This document shows, in pieces, positions 2,984 to 8,668 of a stretch of 14,898 bases of DNA. The notes beneath the pieces were generated by a model, which did no database searches, was not told the DNA's origin, and saw only the letters and a program-made list of their open reading frames with translations. Location of the stretch: contig CAXBPH010000174.1 in NCBI GenBank assembly GCA_963977445.1, forward strand, positions 1 to 14,898, read 5' to 3'. The translations under genes and the position numbers were made by a program. Numbering within the stretch: the first letter of the stretch is position 1; the number at the start of each line of letters is the position of its first letter. The DNA comes from an uncultured bacterium. Its GTDB lineage: Bacteria; Hydrogenedentota; Hydrogenedentia; Hydrogenedentales; JAEUWI01.

Positions 2984-4090
2984 TTGGATTATCGAAATCT
3001 TGAAGCGGCCATGAATGTGGCCGGTGTCGGTATCGCCCAACTTGGACCTGATGGGGTGCTTCAGGAAGTGAATGGCTCCCTGTGTGTGTTGCTTGGTTAT
3101 GAAGCCAGCGACCTGTTGGGCCGAAACATTCAGGATTTCATCCATCCCGAGGGCCTCGGAGAAAACGGGGCTGCGAAGGAGCCGTTACCGGAAGACCTGT
3201 CTGCCGGGGAGGGGGCCCTGAAATGTTACGTGCGCCAGGATGGACAGCTGGTCTGGGCGCGGGTGAGTGAAGGGCCATCGCAAACGGAGGAGGGGCAACC
3301 GGCGTCGAGCGTGGTCGTGTTTCAGGACATGAGCGAGACCAAGGCGGTGGAGGACAGGTGCGAGGCCCTGCGTGTGGCGTTGGAGCGCAGCAATCGGGAC
3401 TTGAAGAACTTTGCCTATGTAGCATCGCACGATTTGCAGGAACCACTCCGGATGGTCGTGAGTTACATGAAATTACTGGAGCAGCACCACCGAGGGAGTC
3501 TCGGTGCAGAGGCGGAACGGTGGATCGCCTACGCGGCGGATGGCGCGCTACGGATGAAGAGCCAGATCAACGACTTGCTGGCGTATTCGCGGATCGAGAC
3601 GGACGGCGAGTCGCCCGATGCGGTGCCTTCGGAGGCTGCGCTCGCCGATGCCCTGGATGAACTAGACGATTTGGTGCTTCTGACGTCGGCAGAAATCACC
3701 CATGACGCTCTGCCCGTCGTTTTAGCGGACCCTGCCCAGTTGGCGCAGGTGTTTCAGATTCTCATCGGCAATGCGATCAAGTTTCGTGGTTCCACGCGTC
3801 CCAGAATACACATCGATGCGGAGCGGAAGGGGGCTATCTGGCAATTTTCTGTGAGCGATAACGGCATCGGAGTAGACGAGCGCCATTTCGAGCGCGTATT
3901 TAAGGTTTTCCAGCGCCTCCATACGGCAGAAGAGTACGCTGGGAACGGCATTGGCCTGGCGATATTTCGAAAGATTATCGAGCGGCACGGCGGGCGCGCT
4001 TGGTTGGAATCCAATCCTGATGGGGGCTCTTTATTCCACTTCACCCTGTCGGAGCCGGTTACGGCATCCTCCAGTCGGTCGCTCCGTTGA
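2984..4090 (+). CDS. Cytoplasmic PAS-domain sensor histidine kinase (Cph1/phytochrome-type HisKA + HATPase_c, no photosensory module)
   Basis: PAS (GIAQLGPDG..VN..LC.LLGY...L.G...HPE), H-box FAYVASHDLQEPLRMV, N-box LIGNAIKF, G1 DNGIGVD, F-box FKVFQRLH, G2 GNGIGLAI. TTG start after GGGAG; ATG 3011 is an alternative. Confidence 0.93.
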   Translation: MDYRNLEAAMNVAGVGIAQLGPDGVLQEVNGSLCVLLGYEASDLLGRNIQDFIHPEGLGENGAAKEPLPEDLSAGEGALKCYVRQDGQLVWARVSEGPSQTEEGQPASSVVVFQDMSETKAVEDRCEALRVALERSNRDLKNFAYVASHDLQEPLRMVVSYMKLLEQHHRGSLGAEAERWIAYAADGALRMKSQINDLLAYSRIETDGESPDAVPSEAALADALDELDDLVLLTSAEITHDALPVVLADPAQLAQVFQILIGNAIKFRGSTRPRIHIDAERKGAIWQFSVSDNGIGVDERHFERVFKVFQRLHTAEEYAGNGIGLAIFRKIIERHGGRAWLESNPDGGSLFHFTLSEPVTASSSRSLR

Positions 4091-4355
4091 GGGAATTAGA
4101 TGGTCGTGGTGAGCGTTGATAAGGGAGACGCTACTATTGCGAAGTCGATAGCTCATTTTACCTATTGTAAATATTATTATAAGGGGTTGTCGTGTCCTCG
4201 AGTCCTTCTACAAGGGTGCCAACATAGGTTTGATCGCAAGTTTCCCAGAGCTCTGCCCATTAAACCCATCATTTCAATCCAGAAATTCCAGTTTATGGTC
4301 ATGGACATACCCCAAACTATTTGATAGACTCTTTACGGTGGAGTGGCTATCGAAA

Positions 4356-5222
4356 ATGGCGTCAAGTCAATTCAAAATATTACTGGTCGAAGATAATTTC
4401 GGCTACACGGAACTAATCCGGCGTATGCTCAAACGGGTTTGCGGTGAGGAATCGCTTGTTGTTGTGACCCGGCTTTCTGATGCGCGTGCTCAACTCAAAG
4501 TGAGTGACTTCGACCTGATTATCCTCGATCTCTCCCTGCCAGACAGTGCGGGCTTAGATACATTGGCCGGTATTCGAGACGAAGCTCCGTCTGTTCCGGT
4601 GGTGGTTACGACCGGAGGGGAAGACGATCTGATGGCCCTGAAGGCGGTCCAAATGGGTGCGCAGGACTACCTCTCGAAGGGAAATTTGACGAGCCACACG
4701 TTGATTCGCTCGGTCCGGTATGCGCTGGAGCGACAGCGACGTTTGCTGGAACTGGACAAGTCCCGGCAAAAGGAACTCAATGACCGTGAGCTGGAAGCCA
4801 TTGAGCGAATCCAGCGTGGCTCGGAGACTGGTGTCACCTCTCAGCCTCACGGACGGGCTTCACTGCGCGATGTGGCCCCCGATGAATTTGAACGTCTTGT
4901 TACACTTTACGGAACAATACTCGAGCATGCACTTGAAGTGAGGGGGTATCGGGCAGAGGCGAATTCCACCGGGGAACTTCGAATGATGTCTGACCGACTA
5001 GCCTTTCTGAAATCAGGTCCCCGTGATGTCATTGAGATTCATACAGCAAGCTTAAAAGAAAAGCTCGAATCTGTGGCACCACAAAAGGCCGGTGTATACG
5101 TCGACGAAGGGCGCTTTTTACTCCTTATGCTGATGGGGGAACTAGTGTCCACGTATCGGACTCAATCGTTGGGAACCAGGGGGATTTCCGATGCAACGGC
5201 TGAGCCTTCCCAAGGAGATTGA
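4356..5222 (+). CDS. kaiA3: REC domain + KaiA-like C-terminal domain protein (KaiA3-type response regulator)
   Basis: Likely start ATG 4356 (MASSQFKILLVEDN) downstream of GGAG. The receiver is intact (ED, DLSLPD, TTG, K). The C-terminus PRDVIEIH..x23..RFLLLMLMGELVSTYRTQS aligns by eye to KaiA IVEIH..RLTLIDILAHLCEMYRRS. It lies directly upstream of kaiB. Confidence 0.72.
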   Translation: MASSQFKILLVEDNFGYTELIRRMLKRVCGEESLVVVTRLSDARAQLKVSDFDLIILDLSLPDSAGLDTLAGIRDEAPSVPVVVTTGGEDDLMALKAVQMGAQDYLSKGNLTSHTLIRSVRYALERQRRLLELDKSRQKELNDRELEAIERIQRGSETGVTSQPHGRASLRDVAPDEFERLVTLYGTILEHALEVRGYRAEANSTGELRMMSDRLAFLKSGPRDVIEIHTASLKEKLESVAPQKAGVYVDEGRFLLLMLMGELVSTYRTQSLGTRGISDATAEPSQGD

Positions 5223-5226
5223 TGCT

Positions 5227-5541
5227 GTGTCAGAGAATGAGAAGCTCCAACTAAGGCTGTATGTGACCGGGCAGACACCCCGATCAGTACGTGCGATTAC
5301 CAATATCAACCGTCTATATGAGAGCAAACTACAGAAAAGTTTCGAGTTGGTCGTGATTGATGTGCTGGAAAACCCCCAACTGGCCGAAGACGAGAAAGTC
5401 GTCGCGACACCCACATTGATTAAAGAGCTGCCCCTACCCTTACGCCGTATTATTGGTGATTTTTCCGACGCAAAAAAAGTACTGCTTGGACTCGACCTTC
5501 TGCATTTAAATAATGAAAATGAAATAGAGCGACTATCATGA
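5227..5541 (+). CDS. kaiB: Circadian clock protein KaiB family
   Basis: LRLYVTGQTPRSVRAI..IDVLENPQLAEDEKVVATPTLIKELPLPLRRIIGDFSDAKKVLLGLDL is a canonical KaiB signature. GTG 5227 follows AAGGAG (5212-5217) and is preferred over the track's ATG 5191. Confidence 0.95.
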   Translation: MSENEKLQLRLYVTGQTPRSVRAITNINRLYESKLQKSFELVVIDVLENPQLAEDEKVVATPTLIKELPLPLRRIIGDFSDAKKVLLGLDLLHLNNENEIERLS

Positions 5542-5771
5542 AAACGGATACAACCGAGCGCCCCAAGACGGTTTATGCTGCCCAATGTCTGTTGTTGGTC
5601 TTCAAGGAAAGCCGCGACCAGTTAATCCGCAAGACTTTTGCCTGGGGGATGGTCCTCGCCATGACATTCCGAAATATCACGGGAATTTTAGTCGGAAACC
5701 TGATTCACGGGGAACCTATCGAGCTTGAACGGGGCCGCAGACTTCTTCAAGGCGAAACGATTAATGGATAG
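5538..5771 (+). pseudogene. kaiC: Internally deleted kaiC remnant preserved as an open 77-aa ORF ('mini-KaiC'); pseudogene or small functional protein
   Basis: ATGA overlap with the kaiB stop. QCLLLVFKESRDQLIRKTFAWGM resembles KaiC CII RAILFAYEESRAQLLRNAYSWGM. FRNITGILVGNLIH..ELERGRRL resembles the KaiC C-terminal FRNFERIISGSPT..ELSRI tail. No Walker A motif is present. Confidence 0.7.
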
Positions 5772-5823: not shown

Positions 5824-7752
5824 ATGGGCAGTGATCATCATATAAAGGTTTTACTCGTAGAAGATAATTCCGGCGATGCTGATCTGATAAAAATCATGCT
5901 CGCCGGGGAAAAGTCCTATCGATTTGCCGTAGCGCATGCAGATCGCCTCAGCACGGGACTGGCGCACCTCAAAAACATTGCTACCGATGTGCTCCTTCTG
6001 GATCTTTCCCTGCCCGATAGCGAAGGCAGTGATAGTTTTAGTATGGTGCACGACTGCTTTCCAGATATGCCCACCATCATTCTCACGGGCAATCATGATG
6101 AAACTCTGGCCCCTCAACTGGTTCGAGGTGGTGCGCAAGATTTCCTTGTAAAGAGTGACCTGAACACCGGGGAATTGGTGCGGGCTATTCGCTACGCCAT
6201 CCAACGACAACAGCTAACGCACGAACTGGAAGAGCGAAATAAGGAAATAGAGGCCAGTCGCTCTAGGCTTCATCAGATCATTACCGACAATGCCGATGCT
6301 ATCGTTTTGCTCGACCCCAACGGGGCTATACAATTCTCCAATCCTGCGGCCACACGGCTCCTGGGTCGGCGGTCAGACGATCTGCGGGGTGTTCCCTTCG
6401 GCTACCCGATTGTAGTCGATGGCGTGACAGAGCTCGATATCATTCGCCGAGACGGTCGACAGTGTATTGCGGAAATGCAGGTGGTGTGGACCAATTGGGA
6501 GGGGCACGAAGCCTATCTGGCAACGCTTCGTGATGTAACTGCACGAAAGAACCTGGAGGCCCAACTGCGCCAGACGCAGAAACTGGAGAGTCTCGGGGTC
6601 ATGGCATCCGGTATCGCCCACGACTTCAACAATATCCTCACCGGGATCCTTGGCTACGGCAATCTCGTTTTAGAAGACTTGGAACCCGGCACAACCCAAC
6701 GGGCGAATATGAAGACCTTAATAGAATCTGCGGAGCGGGCTGCCGAACTTTCCAAACTCATGTTGGCCTATACCGGGCAGGGGCTTCGTGCCACACTTTC
6801 TCTGGATATAAACATGCTCATACATGACATGGGCGATATCTTCGCGTCGATAATTCCGAATACGCACGACGTGTTCTATAGCTTGGACGATGAGAGTCCT
6901 TTCGTCGATGGGGACCCGTCACAGTTGCGACAGGTCATCGTAAACTTAATGCTCAACGCCTCGGAAGCGATCGGAGAATCAGACGGTCAAATTGAGATTA
7001 GTACGGGTGAAATAGAATGTACGGCGAGTGATCTCAAGCGTATCGTTTTCGGTGAGCAATTGGAGCCCGGGACCTACGTCTATTTTGAGGTACGCGATTC
7101 CGGATGTGGAATAGATGAAGTAAGCAGAACGAAGCTCTTCGATCCGTTTTTCACGACCAAGTTCACCGGTCGGGGCTTGGGCCTTGCGGCTACGTCTGGA
7201 ATTGTCCGGGCCCACGGCGGCGGCATTTTAGTAAGTAGTGAGCCTGGCAAAGGGGCTACGTTCACGGTCGTATTGTCGCCCTCCGCCAATCCAGTCCCTG
7301 AATCACCCCGACGGATGACCAGGAAAGGCGATTGGCACGGCAGCGGCACGATACTCGTAGTCGACGATGAGCCACCGATTCGTGACACCCTGAAAAGAAC
7401 GTTGGCGCGATTCGGATTTTCGGTTCTGCTCGCCGAAAACGGCGAACAAGGTGTCGATATTTTTCGCGCCCATAGTCATGAGATCGTTGCATCCATCATT
7501 GATATGACGATGCCAGGGCTGGACGGGCAGGAAACACTTTGCCAGATTCGCGAGATCTGTTCCGATGCGCGGGTAATTTTAAGTAGTGGATACAGCGAAG
7601 ACAATTGTGCTGAATACGATGCCGAACTCAAGCCAGATGCCTTTTTGCAAAAACCCTACCGGGCTATGGATTTTATCACTATGTTGCGCGGTGTGTTGGA
7701 AGGGAATGCTTCCACCGAAACGAGGGATACGTCCGACAGGCGGGATGGTTGA
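5824..7752 (+). CDS. Hybrid sensor histidine kinase REC-PAS-HisKA-HATPase_c-REC
   Basis: N-terminal REC (LLVEDN..LLLDLSLPD..LTG..K), PAS (DAIVLLDPNG..FSNPAA..LLG), H-box IAHDFNNIL, NASEA, DSGCGI, FDPFFTTK, GRGLGLA, and C-terminal REC (VVDDE..IDMTMP..SSGYS..QKPY). Confidence 0.95.
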   Translation: MGSDHHIKVLLVEDNSGDADLIKIMLAGEKSYRFAVAHADRLSTGLAHLKNIATDVLLLDLSLPDSEGSDSFSMVHDCFPDMPTIILTGNHDETLAPQLVRGGAQDFLVKSDLNTGELVRAIRYAIQRQQLTHELEERNKEIEASRSRLHQIITDNADAIVLLDPNGAIQFSNPAATRLLGRRSDDLRGVPFGYPIVVDGVTELDIIRRDGRQCIAEMQVVWTNWEGHEAYLATLRDVTARKNLEAQLRQTQKLESLGVMASGIAHDFNNILTGILGYGNLVLEDLEPGTTQRANMKTLIESAERAAELSKLMLAYTGQGLRATLSLDINMLIHDMGDIFASIIPNTHDVFYSLDDESPFVDGDPSQLRQVIVNLMLNASEAIGESDGQIEISTGEIECTASDLKRIVFGEQLEPGTYVYFEVRDSGCGIDEVSRTKLFDPFFTTKFTGRGLGLAATSGIVRAHGGGILVSSEPGKGATFTVVLSPSANPVPESPRRMTRKGDWHGSGTILVVDDEPPIRDTLKRTLARFGFSVLLAENGEQGVDIFRAHSHEIVASIIDMTMPGLDGQETLCQIREICSDARVILSSGYSEDNCAEYDAELKPDAFLQKPYRAMDFITMLRGVLEGNASTETRDTSDRRDG

Positions 7753-8089: not shown

Positions 8090-8668
8090 ATGGAATCGAA
8101 GCAGTCTTTCAGTACCTCAGAGGTTGCAAAATATTGTCACGTAACCGCTGACACCATTCGGAAGTGGGCGGAAGCGGGTCGTATTCACGTTTTTAAGACG
8201 CCCGGTGGTCATCGACGAATTCGTCGGGACGACTTAGTCCGCTTTCTGCGGGAAAACAAGATACCCATTCACGAAGATTTGGATAATGCCGGTATTCGGG
8301 TACTTGTGGTGGACGACGAAAAGGCGGTGGTTTCGGTGATTCGTCGCTTTCTGGAACGATCGAGAACATCTTTCCAGATTGAAGTTGGGGCAGATGGGTT
8401 TGAGGCAGGGCACCACATGGCGACTTTCAGGCCCAATGTGGTGTTTTTGGATCTGCGCCTGCCGGGTATGGATGGTTTCGAAGTTTGCCGTCGGATTAAG
8501 TCGGACCCGGAAACCAGCAATTGCCAGATAATCGCTATGACGGGATACTACGAAGGCGATGTGGCCCAGCGTATCGTCGATATGGGGGCGGCCTTGCTGA
8601 TGCAGAAGCCCTTCACTCCGGATGATCTGCGTCGTGCCCTTGCCAAAGTCGGTGTGGAAGTGAACTAG
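8090..8668 (+). CDS. Response regulator with N-terminal excisionase/MerR-like HTH (HTH_17) and C-terminal REC domain
   Basis: FSTSEVAKYCHVTADTIRKWAEAGRI..KTPGGHRRI, followed by VLVVDDE..FLDLRLPGMDG..MTG..QKPF. Confidence 0.92.
   Translation: MESKQSFSTSEVAKYCHVTADTIRKWAEAGRIHVFKTPGGHRRIRRDDLVRFLRENKIPIHEDLDNAGIRVLVVDDEKAVVSVIRRFLERSRTSFQIEVGADGFEAGHHMATFRPNVVFLDLRLPGMDGFEVCRRIKSDPETSNCQIIAMTGYYEGDVAQRIVDMGAALLMQKPFTPDDLRRALAKVGVEVN

Follow-up and report, generated by a model that had tools for sequence, protein, structure and literature searches.

A KaiA3-KaiB pair that appears to have outlived its KaiC in a two-component operon of an uncultured Hydrogenedentota bacterium

The closest described relatives of the locus analysed here are the KaiA3B3C3 systems. 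In these, kaiA3 lies immediately upstream of kaiB, with the kaiC slot next, and KaiA3 of Synechocystis sp. PCC 6803 joins a receiver that has a phospho-acceptor aspartate to a C-terminal KaiA-like four-helix domain (Koebler et al., 2024, PMC11372060). In the sections of that paper drawn on here, KaiA3 orthologues and kaiA3B3C3 synteny are given for five non-cyanobacterial genera, including Roseiflexus. Reduced Kai systems have also been described, namely in Prochlorococcus, which has lost kaiA, and in Rhodobacter and Rhodopseudomonas, which have KaiA-independent KaiBC timers (PMC8113500 and the part of PMC11372060 that treats them). The locus reported here lies in a stretch of 14,898 nucleotides (nt) from an uncultured bacterium of the Hydrogenedentota (order Hydrogenedentales, JAEUWI01; contig CAXBPH010000174.1 of assembly GCA_963977445.1), referred to below as the window; all coordinates are positions in the window, on its plus strand. 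It contains a kaiA3-like gene and a kaiB, followed by a remnant of kaiC. As in the reduced systems, one Kai component has been lost and the others kept, but those systems keep KaiC, whereas here it is KaiC that is lost and the two regulators that stay. To our knowledge, all the described reduced Kai systems keep KaiC and drop a regulator, and a search of the literature gave no report of KaiA3 and KaiB beside a deleted kaiC, of kaiB without kaiC, or of KaiA3 in Planctomycetes.

We consider it probable (roughly 75%) that the locus is a KaiA3-KaiB3-KaiC3-type cassette set in a two-component operon, that its kaiC has been gutted, and that KaiA3 and KaiB have outlived kaiC under constraint, likely as accessories of a phosphorelay. 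A first-pass annotation of the window had already described three tightly packed genes encoding a protein with a receiver (REC) and a KaiA-like domain, a KaiB, and a 77-residue open reading frame (ORF) made of KaiC-like pieces, in a genome that is probably non-cyanobacterial. It took them to derive from a kaiA3B3C3-type operon from which the KaiC ATPase had disappeared, with no damage to kaiA3 and kaiB. The checks that it proposed included a comparison of synteny, a search of the whole genome for kaiC, and a comparison of the C-terminal fold of the first protein with KaiA. These three have now been carried out, and that derivation is borne out by a KaiA-like fold, by the presence of KaiC in the corresponding slot of the relatives, and by a stub that consists of pieces of the KaiC CII domain. 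The annotation also offered three explanations for the arrangement (a clock in decay, a system split between two places in the genome, or Kai parts repurposed in two-component signalling), to which we return as the evidence is presented.

The packing is as first described, and all the ORFs are found where the annotation had placed them. The kaiA3-like gene (4356-5222, 288 residues) ends with TGA at 5220-5222 and is separated by 4 nt from an in-frame GTG at 5227, from which kaiB (5227-5541) encodes 104 residues. If kaiB starts at the alternative ATG at 5191, its product has 116 residues and the gap is replaced by an overlap with the KaiA3-like ORF. The kaiB stop (5539-5541) and the ATG at 5538 that opens the 77-codon ORF (5538-5771) overlap as ATGA.

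Comparison with related loci makes clear what should stand in the third position. There are 41 loci with a KaiA3-like gene before kaiB, and in 40 of these a KaiC ORF follows immediately: 35 of them are of at least 480 residues, four are cut by a contig end, and one has 407 residues. The remaining locus (L098) has no KaiC ORF and is discussed below. The gene order in the relatives is a sensor kinase, a receiver of about 147 residues, kaiA3, kaiB, kaiC, and a gene for a REC-PAS-kinase or REC-PAS-GGDEF protein. The window has the same order, except that a 74-residue ORF occupies the receiver slot and the stub occupies the kaiC slot.

The stub is not recognised by Pfam, which finds nothing significant in it, and its sole NCBIfam match covers 28 residues of KaiC with an E-value of 0.0076. 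A BLASTP comparison with the ORFs of KaiB loci was more informative, and gave two colinear pieces that match the full-length KaiCs located after kaiB. Residues 15-38 (nt 5580-5651) correspond to KaiC 304-327, the CII strand that carries the catalytic glutamates, and residues 37-73 (nt 5646-5756) correspond to KaiC 470-506, the C-terminal end; against the KaiC columns they read ...CLLLVFKESRDQLIRKTFAWGM... and ...FRNITGILVGN...IELER.... A chance likeness can be ruled out, because a profile built from 23 KaiCs gives the stub 32.9 bits and none of 2000 shuffled versions reaches this value, the best of them scoring 9.1. On these alignments the 77-residue ORF is a real remnant of kaiC, and the original description of it as KaiC-like pieces was correct.

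The two pieces meet at a Gly-Met (G-M) that is present at both KaiC sites, which suggests a deletion by microhomology. The ATGA overlap between kaiB and kaiC is also found in L047, L049, L051 and the Roseiflexus loci, and the stub ends at about the same place as KaiCs of 503-511 residues; the original start and stop of kaiC appear to be retained. From a kaiC of about 510 codons, roughly codons 12-303 (about 290) and 328-469 (142) have gone, both losses being in frame, and what is left is the start with its ATGA coupling, a stretch of 24 residues from the CII core, and some 40 residues at the end. Both P-loops, the whole of CI, and the CII core from 328 to 469 are missing, and tblastn with the 23 KaiCs, over all frames of the window, found nothing else that resembles KaiC. 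CI is the domain that binds KaiB in the solved complex 5jwr. Because it has no P-loop, no CI and no phosphorylation loop, the stub as read from its sequence can neither hydrolyse ATP nor phosphorylate itself, and it has no CI on which to bind KaiB.

It might be supposed that the organism has an intact kaiC, and that the contig represents a collapsed or minority deletion variant, particularly since this is a fragmented, metagenome-type assembly of 464 contigs. We regard such an artefact as highly improbable. The exact 77-residue protein is on record on three contigs from two archives, the longest being of 110,563 bases. Assemblers would be expected to collapse long repeats, whereas on the protein alignment the two pieces share just the two-residue G-M at their junction. 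In addition, the stub has substitutions at invariant KaiC positions, which would not be expected from the fresh collapse of an intact gene.

The annotation had further suggested that a full-length kaiC might be found elsewhere in the genome, in which case the stub would be the scar of a lost second copy. Such a separation has precedents, in that kaiA3-kaiB3 lies apart from kaiC3 in Synechocystis, Microcystis NIES-843 and Chloroflexus aggregans (according to the passages of PMC11372060 that deal with gene arrangement). It would also fit the apparent constraint on KaiA3 and KaiB, and could be accommodated in an assembly (7.1 Mb) that is 94% complete and broken into 464 contigs. The proposed search over the whole assembly, made with PF06745 and NF006799, found no full-length kaiC. 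There were only weak matches to members of the RecA superfamily, the best at 37.2 bits against an NF006799 cut-off of 408, and the best-scoring matches were RadA, DnaB, RecA and the alpha and beta subunits of ATP synthase. One ORF at a contig end (C221) was considered as a truncated kaiC, on the basis of an E-value of 4e-9 to the KaiC model; however, it has a Zn ribbon and an AAA_25 domain, and is RadA instead. The genome contains a single KaiB above the cut-off, and the KaiA3-like domain occurs in none of the 134 other genomes of the clade, which argues that the lineage has no native Kai system of the KaiA3 type. The split arrangement thus receives no support, and we consider it very unlikely.

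The host differs from Synechocystis sp. PCC 6803 in the nature of the organism as well as in the state of its kaiC. No match to a photosynthetic reaction-centre protein (Photo_RC) was found in the genome, which has 30 DUF1559 genes, and the closest KaiBs come from metagenome-assembled genomes (MAGs) of Planctomycetota. The genes of this host thus mark it as a non-phototroph that is not cyanobacterial, as had been thought probable at the outset, and by these features the genome would resemble those of Planctomycetota. Because the KaiA3-type domain is found in 0 of the 134 other clade genomes, the Kai cassette is probably foreign to the lineage and acquired by transfer. The GC content of the Kai genes (0.48-0.54, against 0.52-0.61 for the flanks) is not decisive on this point. 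Promoter and terminator scans gave results at chance level. KaiB itself is present in 18 of the 134 other genomes, often as tandem pairs. Tandem kaiB-kaiB genes without a KaiA3-type domain were seen at G066:C128:6508-7128 and on G102:C130, G049:C556, G044:C196 and G115:C774, and this suggests that Kai genes are arranged differently in the lineage.

The KaiA3-like protein begins with a clear receiver, identified by Pfam (Response_reg, PF00072) at residues 8-109 (nt 4377-4682) with an E-value of 2.3e-19. The acidic pair E12/D13, the phospho-acceptor D58, T86 and K108 are all kept. A linker helix (113-155) follows, and then a four-helix domain at residues 175-271 (nt 4878-5168). AlphaFold models both the whole protein (mean predicted local distance difference test, pLDDT, 91.4) and the C-terminal domain on its own (pLDDT 90.4), with a long helix between the receiver and the four C-terminal helices. 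With the model of the C-terminal domain as query, all of the first ten Foldseek matches are KaiA C-terminal domains, with E-values of 0.06-0.2, probabilities of at least 0.99 and template modelling (TM) scores of 0.52-0.68; with the whole model, matches to receiver domains swamp the list. VIA-align, run over 48,161 chains, also places KaiA in the top three positions (Z of 11.2, 10.8 and 10.2), with RsbR_N behind at 9.3, although a Z below about 13 may reflect only a common arrangement of helical bundles. We give weight to the KaiA-like fold because the two methods agree and KaiA fills the top ranks in both, Z alone being ambiguous.

Sequence comparison gave a more nuanced picture. A profile of the C-terminal domain found KaiA among the sequences of the Protein Data Bank (PDB) at an E-value of 0.8 only, and a word-based homologue search with residues 135-288 returned the self-match only. 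By contrast, an exhaustive HMMER search of 1.84 billion representatives produced 1381 clusters (at 50% identity) with E-values of 0.001 or below, of which 894 were at or below 1e-10. Among the best 150 of these matches listed, the domain is nearly always C-terminal in the protein. In 73 aligned relatives, it is preceded by a receiver in 53 and by a PAS domain in 18, and the C-terminal domain from the window keeps all 14 of the invariant or nearly invariant residues of the family. Few of the relatives touch either Pfam's KaiA or RsbU_N, and because of this the domain is not, at the level of sequence, what Pfam calls KaiA. The link to Kai proteins comes from its surroundings: the domain matches the ORF immediately upstream of kaiB in 41 of 80 KaiB loci, and one-way comparison gives 39-41% identity to proteins upstream of kaiB in Roseiflexus MAGs (E-values down to 1e-34) and 43% to one from the cyanobacterium Zarconia. 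The model and the homology together support a KaiA3-like product for 4356-5222, consisting of a receiver and a predicted KaiA-like four-helix domain, and so agree with the first description of the protein. The nearest relative, P0005, which is on record as a protein only, is 67% identical in the C-terminal domain. In a metagenome scan with the query P0001, no relative both exceeded 50% identity and had usable context, the one exception being a contig end (L141) with an identical stretch of 48 residues.

The C-terminal domain family is also found fused to longer N-terminal parts as well as to receivers and PAS domains, in proteins of up to 744 residues (P0005-P0154). In six loci from Planctomycetota and Gemmataceae MAGs (L029, L030, L033, L036, L040 and L046) the KaiA-like ORF before kaiB has only 157-176 residues and consists of the four-helix domain without a receiver. 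These resemble the single-domain KaiA of some cyanobacteria. The KaiA3-type domain is thus far more widespread than the five non-cyanobacterial genera named in print in the sections of Koebler et al. consulted, with its 1381 clusters and with loci whose record titles come from many phyla.

The product of kaiB matches PF07689 with an E-value of 4.5e-27 and a score of 94 bits, well above the cut-off of 27, and the identification of KaiB made from the first inspection is therefore secure at the level of the family. It falls just short of one NCBIfam cut-off for circadian KaiB (NF006798, 108.7 against 110) and well short of the other (TIGR02654, 99.9 against 145.3). The closest KaiBs, those of the Planctomycetota MAGs, are 66-72% identical. 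By these scores 5227-5541 encodes a true KaiB, of a kind that fits a KaiB3-like relative of circadian KaiB and not circadian KaiB itself.

In comparison with the KaiABC system of Synechococcus elongatus, therefore, the locus shares a PF07689 KaiB, the fold of the KaiA C-terminal domain, and the gene order kaiA-kaiB-kaiC. It differs in having a true receiver in place of KaiA's pseudo-receiver, in giving no match to Pfam KaiA (there is none anywhere in the genome), in a KaiB below the circadian cut-offs of NCBIfam, and in the absence of a functional KaiC. The locus differs from the KaiA3B3C3 systems in that kaiC is a 77-codon stub, with no other kaiC found in the assembly, and compared with Synechocystis sp. 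PCC 6803 the cassette is in a non-phototroph, between two histidine kinases.

Whether KaiA3 and KaiB are still in use was assessed from the columns in which conservation among 26 relatives is 90% or more. Such columns are kept in 38 of 40 cases by KaiB and in 22 of 26 by KaiA3. For the stub the figure is 21 of 32, or 21 of 28 if its first 16 residues, which are doubtfully aligned, are omitted. The losses in the stub include the change of the first catalytic Glu to Lys, of an Asn to Lys, and of a Gly to Ala. By Fisher's test, the stub differs from KaiB with p = 0.027 without the first 16 residues and p = 0.0017 with them. A leave-one-out analysis gave 2 departures in 30 columns for KaiB (18 of 78 KaiBs, itself included, have two or more) and 3 departures in 32 columns for KaiA3 (at least as many are seen in 53 of the 73 members of its family, a count that includes KaiA3 itself). 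Neither protein is an outlier in divergence, KaiB ranking 24th of 78 and KaiA3 12th of 30. Thus the stub has drifted and KaiA3 and KaiB have not, and this favours, weakly, the view that kaiA3 and kaiB have remained under constraint. Because conservation is normal in these two and the stub has decayed, we lean towards their continued use, although of the explanations first offered both a decaying clock and a new role in two-component signalling are still plausible.

These observations show a kaiC reduced to an in-frame stub of 77 codons, with kaiA3 and kaiB remaining at full length. Without KaiC there is no phosphorylation cycle, and hence neither an oscillator nor an hourglass. Since Kai timing is established as dependent on KaiC, and the assembly contains no KaiC enzyme, the host would have no Kai timer of either kind. 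A flanking kinase may phosphorylate KaiA3 at D58, and KaiB could bind either the KaiA-like domain or a receiver domain of the hybrid kinase that follows. In the solved ternary complex 5jwr, it is fold-switched KaiB that contacts KaiA. The most likely role of KaiA3 and KaiB would thus be as accessory parts of the flanking phosphorelay, although it is just as possible that decay has not yet reached these two genes.

A different view of the stub is that it is itself functional. It would then be translated, and would dock the KaiC tail on the KaiA-like domain, so that with KaiB and phosphorylation of the receiver it would form a two-component switch acting on the flanking kinases, with no need of the ATPase. 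Several features are in keeping with this. The stub keeps its coupled start and its stop, with both deletions in frame; the retained residues, KaiC 470-506, are the C-terminal end, and cyanobacterial KaiA binds a C-terminal KaiC peptide (title of PDB entry 5c5e); and KaiA3 and KaiB look constrained. There are, moreover, other loci with similar erosion. In a Desulfovibrionaceae MAG (L031:470-652) an intact kaiB is followed by only the C-terminal 56 residues of KaiC, and in a Rhodospirillaceae MAG (L098:5301-5399) by only about 35 C-terminal residues, the KaiA3-like gene of the latter also being shrunk to a fragment of 93 residues; in L074 there is a kaiB with no kaiC at all. The window, L031 and L098 thus form three independent loci that keep the 3' end of kaiC and almost none of the 5' end, of which at most a tiny stub is left. 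On the view that the stub is functional, selection and not accident would explain why this survival beside an intact kaiB is repeated in three lineages that are unrelated.

We nevertheless consider a functional stub unlikely, though less so than a second kaiC elsewhere. No homologue of the stub was found among proteins of 42-135 residues in 5.8 billion sequences, so there is no sign of a conserved family of mini-proteins. The remnants in L031 and L098 do not have the coupled ATG: the frame opens after a stop, and in a check for ATG starts only there was none before an internal Met in L031 and none at all in L098. This fits the geometry of the deletions, or the protection of downstream signals, and not a selected peptide. 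Of the roughly 28 conserved residues that lie beyond the first 16 of the stub, 7 have been lost, and in-frame survival would occur by chance in 1 case in 9. With three remnants only, the survival of the 3' end may reflect either signals that serve the following gene or selection that acts on the tail.

We therefore return to the loss of kaiC with retention of KaiA3 and KaiB as accessories, for which a number of points count on the other side. The same figure of 1 in 9 for two random deletions both falling in frame means that the stub may not be simply dead. Its junctions, as we have them, depend on the assembled contig and on the three contig records of the exact stub protein, and in a genome that is 94% complete there is room for a kaiC in the missing part. 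The assignment to KaiA depends on a modelled structure together with the homology to the proteins of Roseiflexus. Pfam finds no match for the C-terminal half of the KaiA3-like ORF and its KaiA family misses the protein entirely; among the 73 relatives, Pfam KaiA matches two, weakly (best E-value 0.029), and RsbU_N seven (best 0.0049). The Foldseek E-values for KaiA are weak, and the VIA-align scores lie in the range where helical bundles in general may be found. Finally, the difference in conservation between the stub and KaiA3 is not significant (Fisher p = 0.50), and kaiB is a small target for decay, small genes decaying later by chance.

If KaiA3 and KaiB are still used, they must have an activity that is independent of KaiC. 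If they are no more than relics, the locus is a neat but ordinary example of an eroding operon. A KaiA3B3C3 cassette that has lost its enzyme is in itself an ordinary product of erosion, and the new aspect is the presence of intact, conserved regulators without KaiC. More generally, the usual fixed cassette of kinase, receiver, kaiA3, kaiB, kaiC and kinase points to the input and output of KaiA3B3C3 systems.

The genes around the Kai cassette were also analysed. The first gene of the operon (2984-4090, plus strand) encodes a sensor histidine kinase of 368 residues, with PAS, HisKA and HATPase_c domains by Pfam. Its H-box, SHDLQEPLR, is intact, and homologues (39-53% identity) occur at the same upstream position in related loci. 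It is followed by the 74-residue ORF (4100-4324, plus strand), which belongs to no family and has no Pfam match, in the slot where relatives have their single-domain receiver of about 147 residues. The possibility that it is a deleted version of that receiver was examined and rejected: its score against a profile of 13 slot receivers is -0.6 bits, a value that 219 of 2000 shuffles equal or exceed. There are two weak colinear tblastn pieces (E-values 3.9 and 8.8), and the two ends of the ORF are loosely like the first strand and last helix of the slot receivers, a likeness that is not significant.

Downstream of the stub is a hybrid kinase of 642 residues (5824-7752, plus strand), with the Pfam domain order REC-PAS-HisKA-HATPase_c-REC, at the place where the relatives carry their REC-PAS-kinase or REC-PAS-GGDEF gene after kaiC. 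Its first receiver and linker (5839-6327) are 37% identical over 163 residues to the receiver and linker of KaiA3, and are the best non-self match to these in the genome. Directly after the hybrid kinase, a protein of 192 residues (8090-8668, plus strand) combines, according to Pfam, a MerR-type helix-turn-helix (HTH) with a receiver domain. This would be an unusual output regulator and is a candidate member of the same phosphorelay, although related loci contain only weak matches to it at the level of the receiver.

Two congeners have a sensor kinase, a receiver of 150 residues and a REC-PAS hybrid kinase, with no Kai genes between them (G008, locus L020, G008:C1:564995-568369; and G006:C135). 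These were considered as a positional orthologue that would mark the insertion site of the Kai genes, but the flanks do not match and the identities to the kinases of the window are only 45% and 34%, so that they represent a paralogous cassette. It is worth adding that some of the other loci have unusual arrangements of kaiC. In a long-read MAG from the Thermoleophilia (L057:3220-4615), a KaiC upstream of kaiB matches in three frames, owing either to frameshifts in a pseudogene or to errors in sequencing. In two further loci, from an Anaerolineae MAG and an unclassified bacterium (L044 and L045), a stretch of 5 kb holds two KaiC genes together with a second KaiA3-like ORF, which suggests that the cassettes have been duplicated.

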